From: a virus
Lineage: Duplodnaviria > Heunggongvirae > Uroviricota > Caudoviricetes
IMG/VR virus record: IMGVR_UViG_2718217868_000007
Coordinates: 1-11,990 of that record
Length of the DNA stretch: 11,990 nt
Strand: one strand, 5' to 3'
Both the position numbers and the translations under genes were made by a program. A model generated the notes under the pieces. It was not told the DNA's origin, ran no database searches, and saw only the letters and a list, made by a program, of their open reading frames with translations. Shown here piece by piece: positions 982-11,990 of the stretch (its first letter is position 1; each line of letters opens with the position of its first letter).

Positions 982-1135
982 GCGTTCATTAATTTGATTT
1001 ATTCGCATCCATCAACGCTTTTAACTCCTCCGGCGTAAAAGGTGGTTTGCGTCGGTGCAACATCGCATGGCAATTAGGGTACACAGGCAGCAAAAAAACA
1101 AATGAGATCAAAGTAATATATCTTCACTTGCAGGC

Positions 1136-1369
1136 TTGAACAGCCGAAAATTTGCGAGCATGATCGCAATTATTTCACTGCCAGGGATATCAATGGCTTC
1201 CAGTAAATCGCTACAGCAGGCAATTGCCAACATAAAAATCTGGCACAAAGGTGAACAGCGCGCGCCGCATAAGCCATTGTTATTGCTATACGTATTAGCG
1301 GGATACCTGAATGGACATCCACGCCTTTTCGATTATTGTAGTGGAACAGTCTACGAGGATGCAGTTTGA
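1136..1369 (+). CDS. hypothetical 77-aa ORF with TTG start; possibly a gene remnant
   Basis: Six-frame ORF only. Starts at TTG, no clear RBS, overlapped by a minus-strand ORF (1170-1415). Lies in lower-GC DNA between nanS and the putative att remnant. Confidence 0.15.
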   Translation: MNSRKFASMIAIISLPGISMASSKSLQQAIANIKIWHKGEQRAPHKPLLLLYVLAGYLNGHPRLFDYCSGTVYEDAV

Positions 1370-1434
1370 AGTGAGTAAGTAAAGGTTGCTGGAAACGATC
1401 AATGCCGCCATACAATGATATTTGAGGATCACCA

Positions 1435-1620
1435 ATGAGTAATAAAAACTACGAAAGTCACCGCAAAGCAATAGTTAGTAAAGGTATACCACCCACTCTA
1501 TTAAATAGGCTCACCAATTCGGATGTTCAGGTGATCAATACCTTCTTAACACGAGTGAGCAAACTGGAACTATCTCAACAAGAGAAAGACTGGATCATAA
1601 AAATCATCTCTATGGTTTAG
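1435..1620 (+). CDS. hypothetical small protein, 61 aa
   Basis: ATG start with GAGGAT 8 nt upstream. No recognisable motif. AT-rich. Confidence 0.25.
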   Translation: MSNKNYESHRKAIVSKGIPPTLLNRLTNSDVQVINTFLTRVSKLELSQQEKDWIIKIISMV

Positions 1621-1822
1621 AGAATTTCAGCCTTGTAGCCTTTCAAGGGTTTTGTGTGGGTACAAACATTATCGAATCGGGATATAGCCGCAGCTGTAGC
1701 TGTATCCACATCAGTAAGTTGATGTAGGTTGACTTAGGTTGAGCGAAAAATAGCGAAAAGCCTTGTGTGGCGCGGATTTCAGTCATAAAAAAACGTCCGT
1801 TGACGTCTATTGATGTTCCGAT

Positions 1823-1860
1823 GGTGCGAAGGTGCGAAGGTGCGAAGGCCGGACTCAAAC
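1823..1860 (-). repeat. degenerate tRNA 3'-end-like sequence with a triplicated octamer; candidate distal att site of the P4-like prophage
   Basis: Plus strand has GGTGCGAA three times in tandem (1823-1846) followed by GGCCGGACTCAAAC. The reverse complement GTTTGAGTCCGGCCTTCGCACC resembles the T-arm/acceptor 3' end of tRNA-Leu (leuX, ...GGTTCGAGTCCGGCCTTCGGCACCA) as I recall it. It is not an intact tRNA. Confidence 0.4.
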
Positions 1861-2059
1861 ATCAAAATAAGTCAATGATAAAAAACAAATAATAAAACAC
1901 AACAATGAAATATGCCCCCTTTTGTGCCCCCACTGTTTTTCTGACCAATCTATTTTCAGCCCATCAACAAATCGGAAAGTTAAATAATTTTTAATCAGTA
2001 AGTTTGGATCCGTAGTTCGGATCCAAACCAGTGCATCTTTTATCCACATAAAAATTTTT

Positions 2060-2350
2060 TTTTCGGAAGAACTGTTCACACTGTTCACCTTTCTTTTTTC
2101 TCCTTTTATTTCATAGTGATAGGTGGTGAATAATGGGTGAAGGGTGAACATTCGATTCTTCACCTCCGGCATTCTGCCGGTGTGACTTGTGCAGGGGATT
2201 AATTTCCCGTGCTGAAATCACACCGGAAGAAAAAAGTTTTTTTTGATTTGATTGTTCACACTGTTCACCTTTCGTTTTTCTCTTTTAATTTCAGTGTGAT
2301 AACGGGTGAATATACGGTGAAGGGTGAACAGTGGATTGTTCACCTTCGGG
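2060..2350. repeat. crr-like cis replication region: two ~120-bp direct repeats carrying TGTTCACC/GGTGAACA iterons
   Basis: Repeat unit 1 (~2062-2169) and unit 2 (~2222-2350) are near-identical. Each contains TGTTCACA+TGTTCACC (2073-2089; 2253-2269), GGTGAACA (2143-2150; 2323-2330) and an inverted copy (2157-2164 degenerate; 2337-2344). Located immediately downstream of alpha, as crr is in P4. Confidence 0.75.
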
Positions 2351-2403: not shown

Positions 2404-4737
2404 TCAGGTTGTTGCAGGGTCGTCACATTTTGGCAGCCAGTCGCCGTAGCTTTCCTCTTTCAGCGTCAGGTTGGTCTGTATCCCCTGTTTGGTATGGCGC
2501 TTCTCGTAATTCAGTCCATATTCCTTCAGCATCACCGGCAGCCCCAGCCCGAACATTTTCAGACTGAGTACATTCCGGTAGCCGTTTGCCTCCATGTAGG
2601 CCAGATAGGCGTGATAGAGGTATTTACGGTAATTACGCGGGATGATACTGGCGTTCCCCATATACATGCCGCTGGTCTGCGGCAGGGTTTCCAGATAGCC
2701 GATAAAATCAAACGTCGGGTCGGCATCCCGTTTGATGTTCAGTGCCTCGTCTGAGTTCTGCTGGGACTGAAGCAGTGACCGGGCGAGCATCGGGTCGCTG
2801 AACTTCTGCATCAGGTGACGCACGATGACCGCCAGCTCGCGGGTGATTTTGTCCTTAAGCTGCGGGTCGCGCTCCTGCGGGGCTATCTGTTCCGGGAAGT
2901 GAATAATCACCCGCCGGCGTGACACGCCGCCGCTGCGGTCGGTGAAGCGCATCGGGTTATTGTTCACGGCCAGAATCACCGCCGGGATATGCGTGGAGTA
3001 CGCATCCCGGTATTTCGGGTCCACGGACACCGCATCGCCGCCGGTGATGGCCTTGAGTCCGGCACCGTCGCCGCTCCATTTTTCCTGGTCCGGCAGGCGT
3101 ATCAGTGAGAAGCCAGTTAACGCGGCACGTTCACGCGGGGATTCCAGCGTCTCGATGGTGGCCGACGTGGCGTTATCCTCCCCGGCCAGCAGGGTGGCTA
3201 TTTCGGCCATGATACTTTTGCCGCTGCCGCCGGGACCGGTCACCTCCAGAAAGAGCTGCCAGTCGTAGCGGTTTGCCAGCACCATAAACAGTGCGGCCAG
3301 AATCACGTCGCGTTTTTCCGCACGGCCACCGGCGGCACGGTCAAGCCAGCGCCAGAACGCGGGGGCGTGGGTCTCCAGCGTTTCACCGTCCACCGGCGGG
3401 GTGAAATCCACATCGCACAGGGTGCGCATCCAGTGTGACGGACTGTGCGGGTGGAACGTGCCGTTCTGCGTGTCGAGCACGCCGTTACGAAAGCCAATCA
3501 GGCGGCGGGAGGGGGCTTCCTGCTGCGGAATAATCAGCTTCAGGGTGTCCACCACGGAGGCCACCTTCCCGGAGGAGAACGGCGCGCGCAGACGCTGAAA
3601 CAGCCCGGCCACATCCCGGGCAAAGTCCTGTGGTGGCAGCACCTTCCAGACACCATTTTCATAACGGGACAGAAGCTGGCCGTTGGCATCGACCGCGAGC
3701 GCCTCGCCGTAATGCTCATAGATACGCATGGCCTTTTCGCTGGTACTCATGGCGGAAAACTCCGCTTCGCTCATGGTGTCGAACGGGCTTTCAGCCGGTG
3801 GCCGGATGGCATCGTAAATGGCCTTACGGGTGGCCTCCCCGCCGTACTGCGTGAAGGCATCATTCCAGTCACCGAAGACCGGCGGCAGGGCAACAACGCC
3901 CTCACACGCATCTGCGGCTGCGGCGGCTTTTTTCTGGCCGTCACCGCTGAGGTCACGGTCTGCGGCAAGGACAATCTGACAGGCCGGATGCTTCTGCCGG
4001 GCAAGGCTGGCCAGAGAAAGGAGATTCACGGAAGAAAGCGCCACCATCACCGTTTCACCGGTCAGGTGATGCACGGTAAGTGCGGTCGCGTATCCCTCCG
4101 CTATCCACAGACGTTTTCCGGCCTGATTCTGTCCTTCAAGGGTGTGACAGGTGCCCCTGACCTGTCCGCCTTTCAGGGTGCGCTTACGGCCGTCAGCACT
4201 GATTAACTGAAGGTTAACCAGTTCGCCGCTGTCGTCATACAGTGGCACCACAAGGTCACCGGCACGCCAGCTCACGCCACCGGCTCTGTGTGTGCCGGTC
4301 AGCATCCGGCATTCCCGGCCGGGAAAGCCCTTGCGGGTCAGGTAGGCGTTACCGGTTCCGGGACGGGTTTTCGCCATCAGGGTTTGTGCCAGTGCGGCGG
4401 CGTTCTTCCGGGCAGCGTCTGTTTCAGCACCGGCGGCAGCCGTCACTGCCGGGTCAGCCGGGGGCAGGCTGCCGGTCACGGCAGCCACCTTTGCGGCCGC
4501 ATCGGACGGGGAAACACCAAACACCTTTTCAACCAGTTTCAGGCCGTCACCGGCACCACACTGATTGCAGTACCAGGTGCCGCGCCCCTCCCTGTCATCA
4601 AAACGGAAGCGGTCACTCCCGCCACAGACCGGACAGGGCTGATGACGGTTTTTCAGCACCTGAATCCCCAGCGCCGGGAGAATACGCGGCCAGTGGCCGA
4701 GCGCATGGCTGACGGTGGCGGTTACGTTCATTTTCAT
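2404..4737 (-). CDS. alpha: P4 alpha-type bifunctional primase-helicase / origin-binding replication protein, 777 aa
   Basis: 777 aa, the same length as P4 alpha. N-terminal zinc-binding primase motif CPVCGG...WYCNQCG, Walker A GPGGSGKS in the central NTPase domain, RBS AGGAG 9 nt upstream of the ATG at 4737. Flanked by TGTTCACC iteron clusters, the known alpha binding sites. Confidence 0.92.
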   Translation of the reverse strand: MKMNVTATVSHALGHWPRILPALGIQVLKNRHQPCPVCGGSDRFRFDDREGRGTWYCNQCGAGDGLKLVEKVFGVSPSDAAAKVAAVTGSLPPADPAVTAAAGAETDAARKNAAALAQTLMAKTRPGTGNAYLTRKGFPGRECRMLTGTHRAGGVSWRAGDLVVPLYDDSGELVNLQLISADGRKRTLKGGQVRGTCHTLEGQNQAGKRLWIAEGYATALTVHHLTGETVMVALSSVNLLSLASLARQKHPACQIVLAADRDLSGDGQKKAAAAADACEGVVALPPVFGDWNDAFTQYGGEATRKAIYDAIRPPAESPFDTMSEAEFSAMSTSEKAMRIYEHYGEALAVDANGQLLSRYENGVWKVLPPQDFARDVAGLFQRLRAPFSSGKVASVVDTLKLIIPQQEAPSRRLIGFRNGVLDTQNGTFHPHSPSHWMRTLCDVDFTPPVDGETLETHAPAFWRWLDRAAGGRAEKRDVILAALFMVLANRYDWQLFLEVTGPGGSGKSIMAEIATLLAGEDNATSATIETLESPRERAALTGFSLIRLPDQEKWSGDGAGLKAITGGDAVSVDPKYRDAYSTHIPAVILAVNNNPMRFTDRSGGVSRRRVIIHFPEQIAPQERDPQLKDKITRELAVIVRHLMQKFSDPMLARSLLQSQQNSDEALNIKRDADPTFDFIGYLETLPQTSGMYMGNASIIPRNYRKYLYHAYLAYMEANGYRNVLSLKMFGLGLPVMLKEYGLNYEKRHTKQGIQTNLTLKEESYGDWLPKCDDPATT

Positions 4738-4751
4738 GGTGTTGTTCTCCT

Positions 4752-5072
4752 TCAGTGCAGTACCGGCGCTTTTATGTGACGGGCACAGAGTTCATCCATC
4801 ACAACCAGCCCGAGAAAGGACAGCGACGGCGCGGCCTTCAGGGGGCCGGATTCCATTAAATCTTCCAGCAGGGCACAGGCTATCTGACGCCCTTTTTCCT
4901 CACCGTGCTGGCGCAGATAAAAGCCTTCCAGCTCAGCGGCGATGGCCGCCTCCAGTGACTCAAGGGTGAGATGCGGGTAGCGGTGCTGACGTTCGCACAC
5001 GGTCAGCCAGGCACAGGCGACAGCGCGACGGTAAAGGGCAGCGCGTAAGACGGGCGGTAAGGGTGTTTTCAT
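4752..5072 (-). CDS. hypothetical protein, 106 aa, left-operon gene immediately upstream of alpha
   Basis: RBS GGGAGG 7 nt upstream of the ATG at 5072. Stop lies 14 nt before the alpha start. No motif recognised. Position corresponds to a conserved small ORF in P4-type left operons. Confidence 0.55.
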
Positions 5073-5207
5073 TTGTTTTCCTCCCTGTGACAGATGACTG
5101 CATTCCGTGCCGGTTGCATTAACTGATAAGGCATATCTGCGTCTCCTGAAGACGTGCGTATCCCTGCGCGAATACGCACATTTAATTTTTCGGGTGTCGT
5201 TTTTTAA

Positions 5208-5663
5208 TTACAGATAATTGCGGTAACTGTTATCCGGGGTGATTTCCGGGTCAGGCTCCGTGCGGGAAATTTCCCGCCATTCCCGCGCCACCGGTGCCGC
5301 CCGGCTGACCGGAACAGGGTCCTGCGGGTAAATATCCAGATATTTCTCCCGCCATTTCTGTAATTCCGGGTCTCCGGCCATTTCTTTCAGTACCGCATGC
5401 CGGTTTACGGGGCTGCGTCTGAACAGGTCAGGACGGTCACAGGTAAATTCCCGCAGAAAACGCCCCAGCGGGATGTCTGTGGTGCGCCCGTCGGCGAGGA
5501 TACGCACAAGGATACTGAATTTACGGCGGTACGGATTCCAGACAATGTCCGGGCAGCGGTACGGCATTTCCCACGGAATACCGTCTTCCAGAATGCCGAC
5601 CACGGCCACATCGGGAAAACCGGCAGAACGGTAAATCTCACCGGGCTGGGGAAAATCAAACAT
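5208..5663 (-). CDS. hypothetical protein, 151 aa, left-operon gene
   Basis: ATG at 5663 overlaps the stop of the upstream ORF (ATGTTTGA), indicating translational coupling. Size and position match the ORF known as orf151 in P4. No catalytic motif recognised. Confidence 0.55.
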   Translation of the reverse strand: MFDFPQPGEIYRSAGFPDVAVVGILEDGIPWEMPYRCPDIVWNPYRRKFSILVRILADGRTTDIPLGRFLREFTCDRPDLFRRSPVNRHAVLKEMAGDPELQKWREKYLDIYPQDPVPVSRAAPVAREWREISRTEPDPEITPDNSYRNYL

Positions 5664-5943
5664 GTGTCCTGTCTCCCCGGTCTTTCTGCTGGGCGAGAAA
5701 ATCGCGGCACAGGCCTTTGGCTTTCAGCTCATTCAGCACAAACTCAATATCTTCATTCAGGTAGCTGAAAATATGCGGAATGTAGAGCTGATGCAGGCCG
5801 GAGAGTTCACGGTGAATCAAATCACCCCCAACAAACTGGGATACGGCGCTGGCGCGGTTGAGCTTATGGTAAGCCTCAATGCTGAGGTGTTCACGGGCGT
5901 CATGATGCGCTGAGACGGTCTGAGGGGCTTTTTTATTACGCAC
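5656..5943 (-). CDS. hypothetical small protein, ~95 aa (GTG start preferred; in-frame ATG at 5988 is an alternative)
   Basis: In-frame GTG at 5943 is preceded by GGAGG (5954-5950) with a 6-nt spacer. The hydrophilic C-terminal part looks protein-like. Stop overlaps the start of the 151-aa gene. The six-frame track extends this frame to 6183, but that part overlaps the neighbouring small gene. Confidence 0.4.
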
Positions 5944-6133
5944 GGGACACCTCCACCACCGGCAGACGGGCAGCAAGGGAGAGCACATAGTCACGGACAA
6001 GGGAACGGCGGGCACTGCGTTCATCACCGGCGACGGTGCGAAGCATACAGATACGGGGATGACGGTCTGTGCGACGGACAGCCGCAAACACAAAGACAAA
6101 TTCAGGGTGTGAGGGGGTAAGGGTTGTAGCCAT
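5936..6133 (-). CDS. hypothetical small protein, 65 aa, first translated gene after the leader
   Basis: ATG at 6133 is preceded by GGAGG (6145-6141). This is the C-terminal segment of the 211-aa six-frame ORF; the longer reading would run through a terminator-like hairpin and overlap vis, so the short form is preferred. Confidence 0.35.
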
Positions 6134-6522
6134 AAGGCAACCTCCGATAACAGCGTAAATGACGCTATCGCCGGAGTTCTCACGCTCGATGGCGATAGCC
6201 CAGACGGGGGTGAGAATACCGGCGTTATCGGAAACCGGCCAGCCCGGAGGCTGCCCCGCCTGAGCTACCATTGACTCAGTGGCATAACATGCGATTGCGA
6301 ACAGGATCATACCTGCACGGCAAACCACACGCCACACCATAATCTGGTGCTCTGTGGCGTTGATTGCGACACAAAAAAAGACGCATGGCGCGTCATATGT
6401 CGCCGATAACATACTCGGGTTCTCACGCCCGGCTGCCGATTTTGCGGCAGCGGAAAAACTATATCCGCAAATGCCGGAAAAAGGCAAGCCAGAAAAAGGG
6501 AGTTTTTGCAGAGCGGGCATCA
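6134..6522 (-). promoter_or_regulatory. untranslated leader of the left operon; candidate early promoter and RNA-based immunity region
   Basis: About 390 bp between vis and the first small gene with no convincing ORF. Contains a terminator-like hairpin and a 9-mer present twice (6403-6411; 6144-6152, abutting the SD) whose complement lies between them (6220-6231). P4 encodes its immunity RNA in this leader. Confidence 0.3.
6373..6394 (-). terminator. terminator-like hairpin plus T-run inside the leader
   Basis: Minus strand reads a 5-bp-stem hairpin GACGC-GCCAT-GCGTC (6380-6394) followed by TTTTTTT (plus-strand A run 6373-6379). The stem is short, so strength is uncertain. Confidence 0.4.
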
Positions 6523-6789
6523 TCATGCGTCGTACCCCCGTTTGCGTCCGGCAATGCGTCCGGCCATCCATGCGGTGACTTCAGAGTGCAGCCAGGCCAC
6601 ATTTTTACCGCCAAGACTCACCTGCGGCGGAAATTCCCCCTTACGGATGAGTTCATAGATGGTCGAGCGTGACAGGCCGCACAGGTGCATCACTTCCGGC
6701 AGACGTAAAAAACGCTCCTGCGTGATGTCCGGCAGCGGCATCAGTGGCGTCACAGGGGCGGGAGACGGGGAAGAAAAAACAGCTTGCAT
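6523..6789 (-). CDS. vis: AlpA-family helix-turn-helix regulator (P4 Vis-like), 88 aa
   Basis: Core [46 protein letters not shown] is a typical AlpA-type HTH. 88 aa, as for the P4 ORF originally named orf88. RBS GAGGT 7 nt upstream. It is the first gene downstream of a TGT-N12-ACA dyad. Confidence 0.7.
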
Positions 6790-6891
6790 CGGGCTACCTC
6801 GTTAATGTCCATACAGCACCGGATAAGTCCGTCCGGCTTCGGGTAGCGCTTTATTTTGTGAATATTTTTGGCAGACGCAACAGGGGGGATT

Positions 6892-6909
6892 TGTTCCGGC
6901 AGCCTTACA
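6892..6909 (-). promoter_or_regulatory. TGT-N12-ACA dyad; candidate Ogr/Delta-dependent late promoter (PLL-like) reading leftward into vis
   Basis: TGT (6892-6894), 12 nt, ACA (6907-6909). A TCACAAA-type element (6861-6855) sits ~43 nt downstream on the minus strand, with vis starting ~110 nt from the dyad centre. Consensus is from P2/P4 late promoters. Confidence 0.45.
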
Positions 6910-6934
6910 ATGACTGTGTGTTTTTTGTTCATCT

Positions 6935-6964
6935 CCACTTAAAGTCATTTAAAGCCACTTAAAG
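6935..6964. repeat. three tandem 10-bp repeats (CCACTTAAAG / TCATTTAAAG / CCACTTAAAG)
   Basis: Read directly from the sequence. Lies just upstream of the PLL-like dyad in the vis/ori intergenic region. Confidence 0.6.
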
Positions 6965-7068
6965 CAATTCGTAATTTTTATAGTGAAATACAAATCGTTT
7001 TTTCTTATTCATTCCCGGCGAATTAATAAAAACAAACAGTAATAAACAGCACAAAAAGCCCATCAACG

Positions 7069-7172
7069 GGTGAACAGTGGTGAACAGACGGTGAACAGTC
7101 ATTACTGCGATTGTTCACCCTTTAACTTACTGTATTACTTATCTTTTTTCTTATGGTGAACAGAGGTGAACA
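7069..7172. other. ori-like cluster of six type-I iterons (GGTGAACA / TGTTCACC)
   Basis: GGTGAACA at 7069-7076, 7079-7086, 7090-7097, 7155-7162 and 7165-7172, plus inverted TGTTCACC at 7112-7119, in AT-rich context. Same octamer as in the crr-like repeats ~4.8 kb away. P4 ori and crr are both built from this alpha-binding octamer. Confidence 0.7.
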
Positions 7173-7252
7173 GTAAAATATAAAAAAAATAAACAGTAAG
7201 CCGTTTTTTCCAGCGACCTTTTCCTGGCTTGCCGGTGTGAGGATGAGTCTCC

Positions 7253-7270
7253 TGTGTCAGGGCTGGCACA
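7253..7270 (+). promoter_or_regulatory. TGT-N12-ACA dyad; candidate Delta/Ogr-activated late promoter (Psid-like)
   Basis: TGT (7253-7255), 12 nt, ACA (7268-7270). TCACAAT element at 7304-7310 lies ~45 nt downstream. The sid ATG at 7343 is preceded by RBS GAGGAG (7330-7335). Confidence 0.5.
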
Positions 7271-7342
7271 TCTGCAATGCGTCGTGTTGTTGTCCGGTGT
7301 ACGTCACAATTTTCTCAACCTGAAGTGACGAGGAGCCGGAAA

Positions 7343-8077
7343 ATGTCTGACAACACCATCCCTGAATATCTGCAACCCGCACTGGCACAACTGGAAAAGG
7401 CCAGAGCCGCCCACCTTGAGAACGCCCGACTGATGGATGAAACCGTCACGGCCATTGAACGGGCAGAGCAGGAAAAAAATGCGCAGGCGCAGGCCGACGG
7501 AAACGACGCTGACGACTGGCGCACGGCCTTTCGTGCAGCCGGTGGTGTCCTGAGCGACGAGCTGAAACAGCGCCACATTGAGCGCGTGGCACGCCGGGAG
7601 CTGGTACAGGAATATGACAATCTGGCCGTGGTGCTGAATTTCGAACGTGAACGCCTGAAAGGGGCGTGTGACAGCACGGCCACCGCCTACCGGAAGGCAC
7701 ATCATCACCTTCTGAGTCTGTATGCAGAGCATGAGCTGGAACACGCCCTGAATGAAACCTGTGAGGCGCTTGTCCGGGCAATGCATCTGAGTATCCTGGT
7801 ACAGGAAAATCCGCTCGCCAACACCACCGGCCATCAGGGCTACGTCGCACCGGAAAAGGCTGTCATGCAGCAGGTGAAATCATCGCTGGAACAGAAAATT
7901 AAACAGATGCAAATCAGCCTCACCGGCGAGCCGGTTCTCCGGCTGACCGGACTGTCAGCGGCAACACTCCCGCACATGGATTATGAGGTGGCAGGCACAC
8001 CGGCACAGCGCAAGGTGTGGCAGGACAAAATAGACCAGCAGGGAGCAGAGCTTAAGGCCAGAGGACTGCTGTCATGA
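7343..8077 (+). CDS. sid: Sid-like capsid size determination (external scaffold) protein, 244 aa
   Basis: Start taken at the ATG at 7343 with a strong GAGGAG RBS, giving 244 aa as in P4 Sid; the track ORF begins at an upstream ATG (7277) with no RBS. First gene of the operon sid-delta-psu; its stop overlaps the delta start (ATGA at 8074-8077). Assigned by synteny and size, not by motif. Confidence 0.75.
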   Translation: MSDNTIPEYLQPALAQLEKARAAHLENARLMDETVTAIERAEQEKNAQAQADGNDADDWRTAFRAAGGVLSDELKQRHIERVARRELVQEYDNLAVVLNFERERLKGACDSTATAYRKAHHHLLSLYAEHELEHALNETCEALVRAMHLSILVQENPLANTTGHQGYVAPEKAVMQQVKSSLEQKIKQMQISLTGEPVLRLTGLSAATLPHMDYEVAGTPAQRKVWQDKIDQQGAELKARGLLS

Positions 8078-8574
8078 TTTACTGCCCGTCGTGTGGACAT
8101 GTTGCTCACACCCGTCGCGCACATTTCATGGACGATGGCACCAAGATAATGATTGCACAGTGCCGGAATATTTATTGCTCTGCGACATTTGAAGCGAGTG
8201 AAAGCTTTTTCTCTGACAGTAAAGATTCAGGAATGGAATACATTTCAGGCAAACAGAGATACCGCGATTCACTGACGTCGGCCTCCGGCAGTATGAAACG
8301 CCCGAAAAGAATGCTTGTTACCGGATATTGTTGTCGGAGATGTAAAGGCCTTGCGCTGTCAAGAACATCGCGGCGTCTGTCTCAGGAAGTCACCGAACGT
8401 TTTTATGTGTGCACGGAGCCGGGCTGTGGTCTGGTGTTTAAAACGCTTCAGACCATCAACCGCTTCATTGTCCGCCCGGTCACACCGGACGAACTGGCAG
8501 AACGCCTGCATGAAAAACAGGAACCGCCGCCAGTACGGTTAAAAACACAATCATATTCGCTGCGTCTGGAATGA
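8074..8574 (+). CDS. delta: Delta: tandem Ogr-type zinc-finger late-gene transcription activator, 166 aa
   Basis: Two Ogr-like Cys4 modules in one polypeptide: CPSCGH...AQCRNIYCSATF and CCRRCKG...VCTEPGCGLVF. 166 aa as in P4 delta. N-terminus resembles P2 Ogr. Confidence 0.9.
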   Translation: MIYCPSCGHVAHTRRAHFMDDGTKIMIAQCRNIYCSATFEASESFFSDSKDSGMEYISGKQRYRDSLTSASGSMKRPKRMLVTGYCCRRCKGLALSRTSRRLSQEVTERFYVCTEPGCGLVFKTLQTINRFIVRPVTPDELAERLHEKQEPPPVRLKTQSYSLRLE

Positions 8575-8647: not shown

Positions 8648-9220
8648 ATGGAAAGCACAGCCTTACAGCAGGCCTTTGACACCTGTCAGAATAACAAAGC
8701 AGCATGGCTGCAACGCAAAAATGAGCTGGCTGCGGCCGAACAGGAATATCTGCGGCTTCTGTCCGGGGAAGGCAGAAACGTCAGTCGCCTGGACGAATTA
8801 CGCAATATTATCGAAGTCAGAAAATGGCAGGTGAATCAGGCTGCCGGTCGTTATATTCGTTCGCATGAAGCCGTTCAGCACATCAGCATCCGCGACCGGC
8901 TGAATGATTTTATGCAGCAGCACGGCACAGCACTGGCGGCCGCACTGGCACCGGAGCTGATGGGCTACAGTGAGCTGACGGCCATTGCCCGAAACTGTGC
9001 CATACAGCGTGCCACAGATGCCCTGCGTGAAGCCCTTCTGTCCTGGCTTGCGAAGAGGGAAAAAATTAATTATTCCGCACAGGATAGCGACATTTTAACG
9101 ACCATCGGATTCAGGCCTGACGCGGCTTCGGTGGATGACAGCCGTGAAAAATTCACTCCTGCGCAGAACATGATTTTTTCGCGTAAAAGTGCGCAACTGG
9201 CATCACATCAGTCTGTGTAA
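8648..9220 (+). CDS. psu: Psu-like polarity suppression / capsid decoration protein, 190 aa
   Basis: Third gene of the sid-delta-psu operon, 190 aa as in P4 Psu, followed by a terminator and the cos region. Assigned by synteny and size. Confidence 0.75.
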   Translation: MESTALQQAFDTCQNNKAAWLQRKNELAAAEQEYLRLLSGEGRNVSRLDELRNIIEVRKWQVNQAAGRYIRSHEAVQHISIRDRLNDFMQQHGTALAAALAPELMGYSELTAIARNCAIQRATDALREALLSWLAKREKINYSAQDSDILTTIGFRPDAASVDDSREKFTPAQNMIFSRKSAQLASHQSV

Positions 9221-9900: not shown

Positions 9901-10629
9901 ATGCGTATTGGAACTGTAGAAGAAATTCACAATTTTTTAAGTGAATACTATATCAACTCCGAAGACCCTATATCCCCACCAGGAGTGAAAGATGTGGGAT
10001 TACTAGAATCAGCGTGTGCAAGACCGTTTGCTTCCGCTGGTGGGCAGGATGCTTTCGGCGATGTATACCACAAAGCAGCAGCACTATTCCATGGAATTAT
10101 TTCCAACCACTGTTTTTATAACGGAAACAAAAGAACCGCATTATTATCAGCCCTTTATTTTTTGAGTGAACATAACCTTTGGTTAGAAAGATGTAATGAT
10201 GAGGAAATGTTTGAATTTACTCGTCAGGTTGCCGCTCATGAAATATGTGAAAAAAGGGATGACGAGATAGATATTATAGCAGATTGGTTTAACAGAAATA
10301 CTCGGCGAATAGTGAAAGGAGAAAAACCCCTTAACTTTTCGAGCCTACGAGAAAGTTTATCTCAATTTGATTTCCAACTAGAAGATGAAGGGCAATATGC
10401 ATTCATCTATAAAAATGGTGAGATCGTTGAGAAAGTGCTAAAAAAAGGGAAGCAAGGAATGCAAGAATATGATCAAGCATATATTGCTGAGCTTCGAAAG
10501 CGCTTAGATTTAACGCCTGAACATGGGGTTGATAGCGCTCGTTTTTATGGGCAGAAAGGTTTAAATGAGGATTTGAATGAATTTATGAAACTTCGTGTAA
10601 AAGTTTTTGATTGGCTAGCCAAGATCTAA
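9901..10629 (+). CDS. Fic/Doc-family protein (Doc-type HxFxNGNKR motif) with ~110-aa uncharacterised C-terminal extension; satellite cargo gene
   Basis: 242 aa. Residues 70-78 HCFYNGNKR (nt 10108-10134) fit the Doc-type HxFx(D/N)(A/G)NKR active-site motif. No Phd-like partner ORF is evident nearby. Markedly AT-rich relative to the P4 backbone. Has its own promoter, RBS and terminator. Confidence 0.85.
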   Translation: MRIGTVEEIHNFLSEYYINSEDPISPPGVKDVGLLESACARPFASAGGQDAFGDVYHKAAALFHGIISNHCFYNGNKRTALLSALYFLSEHNLWLERCNDEEMFEFTRQVAAHEICEKRDDEIDIIADWFNRNTRRIVKGEKPLNFSSLRESLSQFDFQLEDEGQYAFIYKNGEIVEKVLKKGKQGMQEYDQAYIAELRKRLDLTPEHGVDSARFYGQKGLNEDLNEFMKLRVKVFDWLAKI

Positions 10630-10730: not shown

Positions 10731-11990
10731 TTACACCTGCCTTTTTGCGAAATCGTATGGTGTAATATAATCAACAGTGTTTTTTTCAAGATAATCGGCC
10801 CACCACTGTACCATCAAACGACGTTCATCCAAATGCTCAGATGTATGGATATAAGCTGCACGTACATTATTACGCTCTGAATGGCTCAACTGTCGTTCTA
10901 TCGCGTCATCACTCCATAACCCTGACTCACCGAGCGCTCCACGCGCCATCGTCCTAAATCCATGCCCGCAAACCTCGGTTTTCGTGTCATACCCCATCGC
11001 ACGCAATGCGCTGTTTACCGTGTTTTCACTCATAACTTTAGTTGCGTCATGATCCCCCGGAAAGAGTAGCTCTTTATCACCACTAATCTGTTTTAACTGG
11101 TCTAACAAAATCATCGCCTGCCAACTAAGAGGAACAATATGCTCCTCTTTCATCTTCATGCCACGATACGAGTAACGAACACCTTTAATTTCTTCTCGTT
11201 TTGCAGGTATACGCCAAAGCGATTTATCGAAGTCGAACTCATCCCAACGTGCGAAACGTAACTCACTGGAACGCACAAAAGTTAGTAATGAAAGTTCGAC
11301 CGCGATCCGTGTCATTACACGGCCACGATATGCCGCAAGACGTGCGAGAAACTCAGGAAACCGGCTAGAGGGTAGAGCTGGATAGTGTCGCGCTTTAGTT
11401 GTCGATAAAGCACCGGCCATATCACTGGCTGGATTTGAGTCGATGTAATCGTTCTGTACGGCATAACGCATAATGGCCGTAACGCGCTGCTGAAGACGCT
11501 GCGCCACGTCATGCTTACCACTGGCATCAACTTTTTTAATCGGGGCTAACAAGTGACTGGTTTTGAGCTGGCGAATGTCGGACAAACCGATATGAGGGAA
11601 GATATAAAGCTCAAGGTAGCGAAGAACGCGCGATCGATGATCTTCACTCCAGCGCTTGTTACTAGCATGCCATTCACGAGCAATGGTTTCGAAAGTATAT
11701 GCCCCCGAATTCTCAGCCTTAGCTTCCTTCTGTTCGGCTTTTGGGTCAATGCCCTGCACTAACAGCTTTTTAGCTTCGTCACGCTTTGCTCTTGCCTGAG
11801 CAAGGGTCACAGTGGGCCAAACACCAAAAGCGAGGCGATCCTCTTTTTTGTCAGAGGGACGTCTGTATTTCATGCGCCAGTATTTAGAACCCTTGGCCGA
11901 AACCTCGAGATACAAACCGCCGCCATCGGCCATTTTGTAGGTTTTGTCTTTTGGCTTTGCGGTCTCGACTTGTCTGGCGTTGAGCTTCAT
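10731..11990 (-). CDS. int: P4-type tyrosine integrase, 419 aa
   Basis: N-terminus MKLNARQVETAKPKDKTYKMADGGGLYLEV is characteristic of P4-family integrases. C-terminal catalytic region has H-x-x-R (GHGFRTMARG) and the tyrosine in RAAYIH. The ATG is the last codon of the window, so the promoter and tRNA/att site are off-window. Confidence 0.93.
   Translation of the reverse strand: MKLNARQVETAKPKDKTYKMADGGGLYLEVSAKGSKYWRMKYRRPSDKKEDRLAFGVWPTVTLAQARAKRDEAKKLLVQGIDPKAEQKEAKAENSGAYTFETIAREWHASNKRWSEDHRSRVLRYLELYIFPHIGLSDIRQLKTSHLLAPIKKVDASGKHDVAQRLQQRVTAIMRYAVQNDYIDSNPASDMAGALSTTKARHYPALPSSRFPEFLARLAAYRGRVMTRIAVELSLLTFVRSSELRFARWDEFDFDKSLWRIPAKREEIKGVRYSYRGMKMKEEHIVPLSWQAMILLDQLKQISGDKELLFPGDHDATKVMSENTVNSALRAMGYDTKTEVCGHGFRTMARGALGESGLWSDDAIERQLSHSERNNVRAAYIHTSEHLDERRLMVQWWADYLEKNTVDYITPYDFAKRQV

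Follow-up and report, generated by a model that had tools for sequence, protein, structure and literature searches.

Nested and overlapping kil, eta, and epsilon cistrons with an immunity RNA in the left operon of a P4-like satellite prophage

Results

Gene Content and Identity of the Element

The stretch of DNA that we analyzed (the window; 11,990 nucleotides) carries the chain of genes vis, eta, kil, epsilon, and orf151 on its minus strand, one of which spans a promoter and several RNA elements (Table 1). Across the entire 1.8-kb query of nt 5100–6900, the sequence has 95.9% nucleotide identity to phage P4, and nt 5600–6600 are 100% identical to a leuX-integrated prophage (beside tRNA-Leu) of Escherichia coli H6 (NZ_CP010170), for which PGAP lists an "Icd-like protein" of 196 aa, a "Derepression protein" of 95 aa, and a hypothetical protein of 151 aa. 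A match was found in 1048 of 5426 complete E. coli genomes; P4-like satellites are present in about a fifth of the complete E. coli genomes of the collection.

Using the core set of P4-like satellites after Moura de Sousa & Rocha 2021 (int, psu, delta, sid, and alpA, as well as epsilon and alpha), we find the core genes co-localized in the window and in the P4 order, and int, psu, delta, sid, vis, eta/kil, epsilon, orf151, cnr, and alpha are all intact. The prophage could in principle be a decayed remnant with ORFs that are no longer expressed or functional, as pseudogenes in the flanks of the element might suggest, together with frameshifts or deletions in kil, epsilon, or eta of four related loci (L005, L086, L013, and L059). 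In the window itself, however, every P4 core gene is intact, as are the promoter, the RNA elements, and their complementarity, which makes decay highly improbable. The psu–int hotspot of the element holds a Fic/DOC cargo gene, and its cargo differs from that of P4.

Table 1. Genes, promoter, and RNA elements of the window, with their P4 counterparts
Feature	Position	Strand	Description	P4 counterpart
int	10731-11990		P4-like core gene	
psu	8648-9220		P4-like core gene	
delta	8074-8574		P4-like core gene	
sid	7343-8077		Identified via position and PGAP only; no Pfam match	
vis (P4 orf88)	6523-6789	minus	AlpA-family excisionase/regulator; Pfam Phage_AlpA, 74 bits	NP_042041, 87/88 aa identical
eta	5936-6526	minus	196 aa; three ATGs in a row sit on the vis stop, the first taken as start; PGAP WP_071940787	199 aa
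PLE-type sigma-70 promoter	6458-6487	minus	TTGCCT, 18-nt spacer, TATAGT; inside eta	Identical
Leader RNA of PLE transcript	6374-6451	minus	Rfam isrK (RF01394) 71.2 bits, c4-a1b1 (RF03163) 50.8 bits	
seqA	6410-6403	minus	Core GTTATCGG; inside PLE leader	
Terminator-like hairpin	6394-6380	minus	In PLE leader, T run next	
cI gene (immunity RNA CI)	6188-6275	minus	Rfam C4 antisense RNA RF01695, 76.2 bits (gathering 45), full-length model	
seqB loop of CI	6234-6223	minus	UUUCCGAUAACG	
seqC	6141-6152	minus	TGTTATCGGAGG; downstream target of CI RNA; ends in kil GGAGG	
kil	5936-6133	minus	65 aa; ATG 6133, TAA 5938-5936; Icd-like	64/65 aa identical (98.5%)
epsilon	5656-5943	minus	95 aa; GTG 5943, TGA 5658-5656; 8-nt overlaps at both ends	NP_042039 "helper derepression protein", 92/95 aa identical (96.8%)
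orf151	5208-5663	minus	151 aa; conserved P4 gene; start overlaps epsilon stop	NP_042038, 147/151 aa identical
ORF	4752-5072			ORF106, 106/106 aa identical
alpha	2404-4737		P4-like core gene (primase)	

Overlapping Junctions and Reading Frames

We compared frames, starts, and junctions in an alignment of 88 loci, consisting of the window, P4, 80 IMG/VR loci, and six genome loci. The IMG/VR scan used an alignment, and the scan of genome contigs used a single epsilon protein and returned seven loci, one of them spurious (L010). Polymorphism by codon position was counted among 80 close loci.

The first-pass annotation had described the 65-aa and 95-aa ORFs as overlapping by a few nucleotides, with the ribosome-binding site of the second inside the end of the first, and this description holds: kil and epsilon share the 8 nt GTGCGTAA (5943–5936), and a GGAGG at 5954–5950 lies 6 nt before the epsilon GTG. 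The stop of the 95-aa ORF overlaps the start of the 151-aa gene, as had also been proposed, by another 8 nt (ATGTTTGA, 5663–5656), just upstream of which lies the ribosome-binding region GGGGAGACAGGA; the GGAGG-type ribosome-binding sites of epsilon and orf151 are thus each located inside the preceding gene. In at least 80 of the 88 related loci, the two junctions and the two ribosome-binding sites are retained. The kil/epsilon junction reads GTGCGTAA in at least 80 loci, with a GGAGG-like site always present, and ATGTTTGA is present in 86, with the stop/start overlap in 85 of those. Epsilon ends at TAA in a Buttiauxella locus (L008), leaving a 3-nt gap before the orf151 ATG, and in a Rahnella locus (L009) the orf151 start reads ATGTTCGA after a 60-nt gap. 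At the other end of the chain, the vis TGA (6525–6523) overlaps the first eta ATG (6526–6524) as ATGA, within the junction GCATGATGATG (6528–6518).

Polymorphic sites at codon positions 1/2/3 number 6/2/18 in kil (p = 3e-4), 4/3/14 in epsilon (p = 5e-3), and 11/5/26 in vis (p = 2e-4), a bias that supports these three frames; orf151 gives 17/14/24 (p = 0.24). Junction conservation together with third-position polymorphism in the proposed frames indicates that the overlapping arrangement is more than chance, and vis, eta (kil), epsilon, and orf151 are best explained as one chain of translationally coupled genes in this order.

Identity and Start of epsilon

Epsilon matches Pfam PF25738 (Derepression) over its whole length, residues 1–95 aligning to model positions 1–95 (167.6 bits, cutoff 27), and lies directly after kil and before orf151 as in the P4-like left operon, a position that is conserved in the 88 loci. 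Database homologues are 93–99 aa long and confined to Enterobacterales.

Because both the kil and the epsilon frames are open upstream (211 and 175 aa, respectively), the choice of starts was settled by comparison. Epsilon might be longer than 95 aa, with its start at, for instance, GTG 6183 (the 175-aa ORF) and its frame running across kil, and most loci indeed show no stop for 80–107 codons upstream. Eighteen of the 26 polymorphisms of the kil region, however, fall on position 2 of the epsilon frame, and an NCBIfam search of the extension gave no match. The Pfam model and all annotated homologues begin at the GTG 5943 codon, at which divergent relatives carry ATG (Serratia, Buttiauxella, Rahnella, and Enterobacter-type relatives and a 70%-identity group), and in 12 loci where epsilon is intact a stop precedes the GTG by 4 codons. 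On the codon-position pattern, the upstream stops, and the homologue lengths, we rejected the longer epsilon, which is scarcely credible. The 95-aa epsilon and the 65-aa kil starts, which had been left as uncertain in the first-pass annotation, can now be regarded as settled.

The E protein of P4 is an anti-repressor of P2 C and derepresses the helper (PMC2995052), and epsilon is accordingly a predicted anti-repressor of a helper-prophage repressor (P2 C), the binding being modeled on P4. Epsilon differs from its P4 counterpart at three residues (R13H, R36Q, and D66E), of which H13 is unique among the 88 loci, and its helper specificity could differ from that of P4. PF25738 is the sole family match of epsilon, with no match to an ANT family as would mark a P1-type Ant antirepressor; epsilon appears to fill the anti-repressor slot of the module and is, by sequence, not homologous to Ant proteins.

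kil as the C-Terminal Part of eta

With 76.9 bits (cutoff 25), residues 12–59 of Kil align to model positions 1–48 of NCBIfam NF033153 ("host cell division inhibitor Icd-like"). Together with the PF25738 match of epsilon and the alignment to P4 (Table 1), this bears out the early guess that the two ORFs are P4 kil and epsilon. In P4, the 65-aa ORF corresponds to the final 65 codons of what was formerly labeled "cI gene product / put. ash gene (aa 1-137)" (ORF137).

The kil frame is open stop-to-stop much further upstream; rather than standing alone, the 65-aa ORF thus makes up the 3′ portion of a longer ORF. This ORF, eta, measures 211 aa when counted from an ATG inside vis, contains kil as its in-frame C-terminal part, and spans PLE, seqA, cI, and seqC before ending as kil. 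The nesting in eta, as well as the CI RNA, seqA, and seqC within it, was absent from the first-pass description, which had allowed that a single longer gene might take the place of the small ORFs; this is half the case, as kil lies in frame within the 196-aa eta and both products are reported for P4 (see below). The 3-residue difference in eta length between the window and P4 or P4-type loci is due to a 9-nt in-frame indel, and in-frame indels give 184-, 192-, 196-, and 199-aa forms across loci.

It is conceivable that no separate 65-aa gene exists and that only the 196-aa Eta is made, the internal ATG 6133 being unused: PGAP calls the 196-aa CDS only, without a separate kil, and in most loci the frame runs open from the vis stop onward. 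Several observations speak against this. A Shine-Dalgarno GGAGG (6145–6141) lies 7 nt ahead of the kil ATG, inside seqC, and GGAGG and ATG (6145–6131) are kept in nearly all 88 loci although the adjacent 8 nt of seqC are hypervariable. Constraint at the amino-acid level begins at kil, as polymorphism between the vis stop and the kil ATG is spread evenly over the codon positions (45/43/45, p = 0.97). Among Kil homologues, many are listed as proteins of 64–66 aa in their own right, and in a Serratia locus (L007) the ORF falls short of vis. PLE lies inside eta, so that PLE transcripts cannot encode full Eta, and for P4 both Kil and Eta products are reported in a secondary summary of Forti 1999 (PMC10111431). 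We therefore consider a locus that makes Eta alone very unlikely, and treat kil and eta as a nested pair.

Upstream of kil, the eta frame is without a stop in 51 of 56 distinct upstream sequences, whereas the other two frames carry 2–3 or more stops, and only 0.7% of shuffles of the window sequence keep the eta frame open. The open frame fits selection for ribosome transit and not for a peptide, with the qualification that the loci are interrelated and that the RNA elements also constrain the sequence. Pfam Phage_ASH matches this upstream part of eta (residues 37–158 of the 211-aa ORF).

The AlphaFold model of Kil is a beta-beta-alpha fold (beta-hairpin plus helix; pLDDT 75) and that of epsilon a helical hairpin with a third helix (pLDDT 74). 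Foldseek searches of the PDB gave no match better than E = 1.3 for Kil and E = 2.6 for epsilon, and PDB sequence searches for both were empty; because the models match no solved fold, structure lends no independent support to the mechanism. Searches with orf151 gave no Pfam or NCBIfam family match, and it matches phrog_10748, a PHROG without assigned function (335 bits). PADLOC gave no match for Kil, epsilon, or orf151.

Promoter, Immunity RNA, and Specificity Classes

PLE is the only promoter-like site on the minus strand in 5100–7300, and the P4 record X02534 marks a -10 at its position. Downstream of it, the Rfam isrK, c4-a1b1, and C4 matches are found in the expected order inside eta, and kil is the first ORF 3′ of the C4-type RNA, with its ribosome-binding site within the downstream antisense target. 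IsrK and C4 are counterparts of P4 seqA and CI RNA, and CI pairs with seqA and seqC, leading to premature termination (PMC4825925, PMC3632133); the literature searched yielded no mention of seqB together with CI RNA.

Differences from P4 cluster in three short patches, namely seqA (GUUAUCGG in the window and UUCACAGG in P4), the seqB loop of CI (CCGAUAAC and CCUGUGAA), and seqC (GUUAUCGGAGG and UUCACAGGAGG), and the changes in the seqB loop are matched by changes in seqA and seqC. The window's own seqB is predicted to form duplexes of -11.5 kcal/mol with seqA and -14.3 kcal/mol with seqC, whereas foreign seqB loops on the window seqC reach -6.8 (P4), -7.5 (L013), -5.7 (L069), -3.9 (L035), -5.4 (L089), and -4.6 kcal/mol (L008). 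Across the 88 loci, seqA, seqB, and seqC co-vary in at least seven specificity types, and the window type differs from that of P4. Cognate loop-target duplexes range from -12.5 to -14.6 kcal/mol in six classes (-8.8 in the L008 class), compared with about -3 to -9 kcal/mol for non-cognate ones. Four loci with mismatched seqA/seqB/seqC (L018, L055, L033, and L059) look recombinant.

As the seqA/seqB/seqC cores differ and the foreign duplexes are weak, immunity is predicted to be non-cross-reactive with P4; the window element, of the non-P4 class GUUAUCGG, would be heteroimmune to P4, and translation of its kil should answer only to its own CI RNA. CI pairing would occlude the kil ribosome-binding site in every class.

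Discussion

kil, eta, epsilon, and orf151 are cistrons that almost certainly belong to the left (early/replication) operon of a satellite prophage resembling P4, in which the coupled chain doubles as the read-out of RNA immunity. The left operon of P4 (NC_001609, 7440–9030) has the same gene order, 8-nt overlaps, epsilon GTG, PLE, and RNA elements, and the same gene lengths as the window element except for eta. The small-gene finding is real but already known: P4 kil and epsilon are well studied, the two overlapping genes are almost identical to them, and the genes already have RefSeq annotations.

In P4, the terminator timm is reported to lie within kil. For P4, kil is said to encode a product of 65 aa and to be the gene translated first from PLE, whereas eta is said to comprise 197–199 aa with three candidate starts, to begin upstream of PLE, and to be translated from PLL transcripts; translating either of them reportedly prevents Rho-dependent termination at timm (all three points as attributed to the 1999 J Bacteriol article of Forti et al.). 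Carried over to the window element, kil would be the first cistron translated from PLE transcripts, and vis and eta would come first on the upstream PLL transcripts, so that the "head of the left operon" assigned to the small genes by the first-pass annotation would apply to PLE transcripts but not to PLL transcripts.

Taking Rho termination, RNA processing, toxicity, and C-repressor binding from work on P4, for which an eta/kil/CI model is summarized in PMC10111431, we propose the following scheme. In the lysogen, the constitutive PLE inside eta would make a leader that is processed into CI RNA, and the seqB loop of CI would pair with seqA and seqC. As the paired seqC includes the kil Shine-Dalgarno, kil would not be translated, and the untranslated RNA would be terminated by Rho within kil, so that epsilon, orf151, cnr, and the alpha primase would stay off. 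Once immunity is circumvented, or transcription starts at the late promoter upstream, ribosomes would translate kil on PLE transcripts or, on PLL transcripts, eta (which ATGA couples to vis), keep the RNA covered, and move on to epsilon and orf151 by way of the two 8-nt overlaps. Kil would then be toxic to the host, and epsilon would bind the C repressor of the helper prophage, which would thereby be derepressed.

P4 kil is reported, in summary form, to kill the host or block its division when overexpressed (PMC10111431), and by this analogy Kil is probably both an Icd-like host-killing protein and a checkpoint for transcription termination. The suggestion that the two ORFs encode anti-helper or host-takeover factors thus divides between them on the P4 precedent: epsilon would be the helper anti-repressor, and the only helper-manipulating factor of the two, whereas Kil would kill the host rather than manipulate the helper.

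We lean toward a joint reading in which at least seven mutually non-complementary seqA/seqB/seqC classes exist in nature and the first ~130 codons of eta serve as a "translated spacer", that is, a frame kept open across immunity classes and indels without constraint at the amino-acid level. These two points are in line with the published P4 model, which they would extend and not overturn; they are less well documented than the coding part, which is not novel. With the covariation at three RNA sites, a natural data set on immunity specificity in P4-like satellites is already at hand.

The main use of the analysis lies in annotation, as the starts and frames of four overlapping cistrons are fixed; useful additions are the resolved starts, the nesting in eta, the way in which seqC ties in with the kil ribosome-binding site, the assignment of the element to a non-P4 immunity class, and several pitfalls of annotation and naming. 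For a region of which the main products are the CI RNA and the 65-aa protein, the automatic names "Icd-like protein, 196 aa", "transcriptional repressor" (PHROG, RefSeq P4), and "Ash" survive as legacy labels. Phage_ASH, the "epsilon" marker in one census of P4-like satellites, is actually on eta, epsilon being PF25738.

Similar modules are found in other phages. The anti-immunity locus of N15 consists of an isrK-like leader, a C4 RNA (cA RNA), the icd-like gene 32, and then the overlapping gp31 and Ant; the gene 32 product is 52% identical to Kil, and Rfam C4 and isrK occur in the same order as in the window. Both loci share a processed C4-family antisense RNA that has two targets, one upstream in the leader and one downstream, where the small Icd-like ORF has its ribosome-binding site; this ORF is followed by overlapping genes ending in an anti-repressor. 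The immI operon of P1/P7 (c4 RNA, icd, ant) is the same module, and NF033153 takes its name from P1 Icd; family models and established knowledge underlie the comparison with P1. A tblastn search at E <= 1e-3 did not recover P1. The modules differ in their targets, epsilon being predicted to act on the repressor of another phage (the helper) instead of on that of its own.

The Salmonella Gifsy-1 locus isrK-orf45-anrP has an IsrK-type leader with a Rho-independent terminator, to which the window leader can be likened (isrK, 71 bits), the sequence comparison being made via the Rfam model only. In Gifsy-1, a processed downstream RNA and translationally coupled small ORFs control an anti-repressor-like gene (PMC4825925). 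It differs from the window element in its other downstream proteins and in the sRNA activation of orf45 translation.

RNA immunity classes

Across the 88 P4-like loci compared at all three sites (L001 and L004-L090), seqB, the loop of the CI immunity RNA, covaries with its two targets inside eta, seqA and seqC, in at least seven specificity classes. Predicted duplexes at these sites are far more stable for cognate than for non-cognate pairs. The window belongs to class GUUAUCGG, common to 22 loci, whereas P4 itself is of class UUCACAGG.

Four loci depart from this pattern in their immunity regions: in L018 and L055 the seqB/seqC pair is mismatched by seqA, and in L033 and L059 seqB fits neither target well. 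All four have probably arisen by recombination of one immunity class with another, and their immunity might be altered or leaky.

Features of the window and its flank
Feature	Position	Strand	Remarks
seqA	6403-6410		
seqB loop	6223-6234		
seqC	6141-6152		
eta upstream of kil	6134-6526	minus	
orf151	5208-5663	minus	
eta, including kil	5936-6526	minus	carries the Phage_ASH (Pfam PF10554) match
Fic/DOC-family protein	9901-10629	plus	242 aa; PGAP: death-on-curing family toxin
Direct repeats (two, 120 nt each)	2050-2169 and 2230-2349		80% identical
Sialate O-acetylesterase (SASA) gene	1-981	plus	beyond satellite; adjoins nanM/nanC
Fragments	1100-1900		H6 annotation: integrase, HNH endonuclease, phosphorothioate-dependent restriction pseudogenes

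Constraint, decay and labels in the left operon

The portion of eta 5' of kil shows no codon-position bias (45/43/45 variable sites at codon positions 1/2/3), and its frame, in-frame-indel forms included, is nonetheless stop-free in 51 of the 56 distinct sequences, while the remaining frames are full of stops. Upstream eta looks like an open reading frame retained for the sake of translation itself. Farther down the operon, third-position bias in orf151 is only weak (17/14/24), and the 88 loci encode 47 variants of its protein, which differ mostly in the C-terminal third; the gene is under less constraint than kil or epsilon.

The kil, epsilon and eta modules do decay in some hosts, as in certain close relatives, with kil hit by a deletion or frameshift in L005, epsilon likewise in L086, and eta carrying a stop in L013, some of these loci being metagenome-assembled contigs. 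A more divergent relative, L009 from Rahnella inusitata, has the end of a kil-like ORF and an epsilon homologue at about 1860-2770; the ORF upstream is unrelated, and no match to C4 (CI RNA), isrK or c4-a1b1 (the seqA leader) reaches gathering there. Possibly, L009 holds a left operon of the P4 kind that relies on another immunity system.

Legacy annotation keeps mislabels in circulation for the eta/kil/cI region. The RNA gene cI still carries a 137-aa "transcriptional repressor" annotation in the P4 RefSeq record, and PHROG 6928 and 1743 have inherited the same label for Kil and Eta. A census of P4-like elements used Phage_ASH as its "epsilon" profile and equated Ash with epsilon (PMC8628076); the true family of epsilon is PF25738.

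Cargo, repeats and flank

The psu-int interval is a known defence/cargo hotspot of P4-like satellites, occupied in the window by the Fic/DOC gene. Its product has only weak matches in PADLOC, to candidate systems (PDC-S23), and no antitoxin ORF was noted alongside the gene.

Directly downstream of alpha, the two direct repeats start 180 nt apart, an arrangement like that of crr, the cis replication region of P4; small ORFs listed there are probably repeat artefacts. Outside the satellite, the esterase gene and the fragments look like remnants of another leuX-site island, and the esterase ORF is of 326 aa in the window, compared with only a partial pseudogene in the annotation of H6, an E. coli genome whose leuX prophage is identical to the window over 5600-6600.
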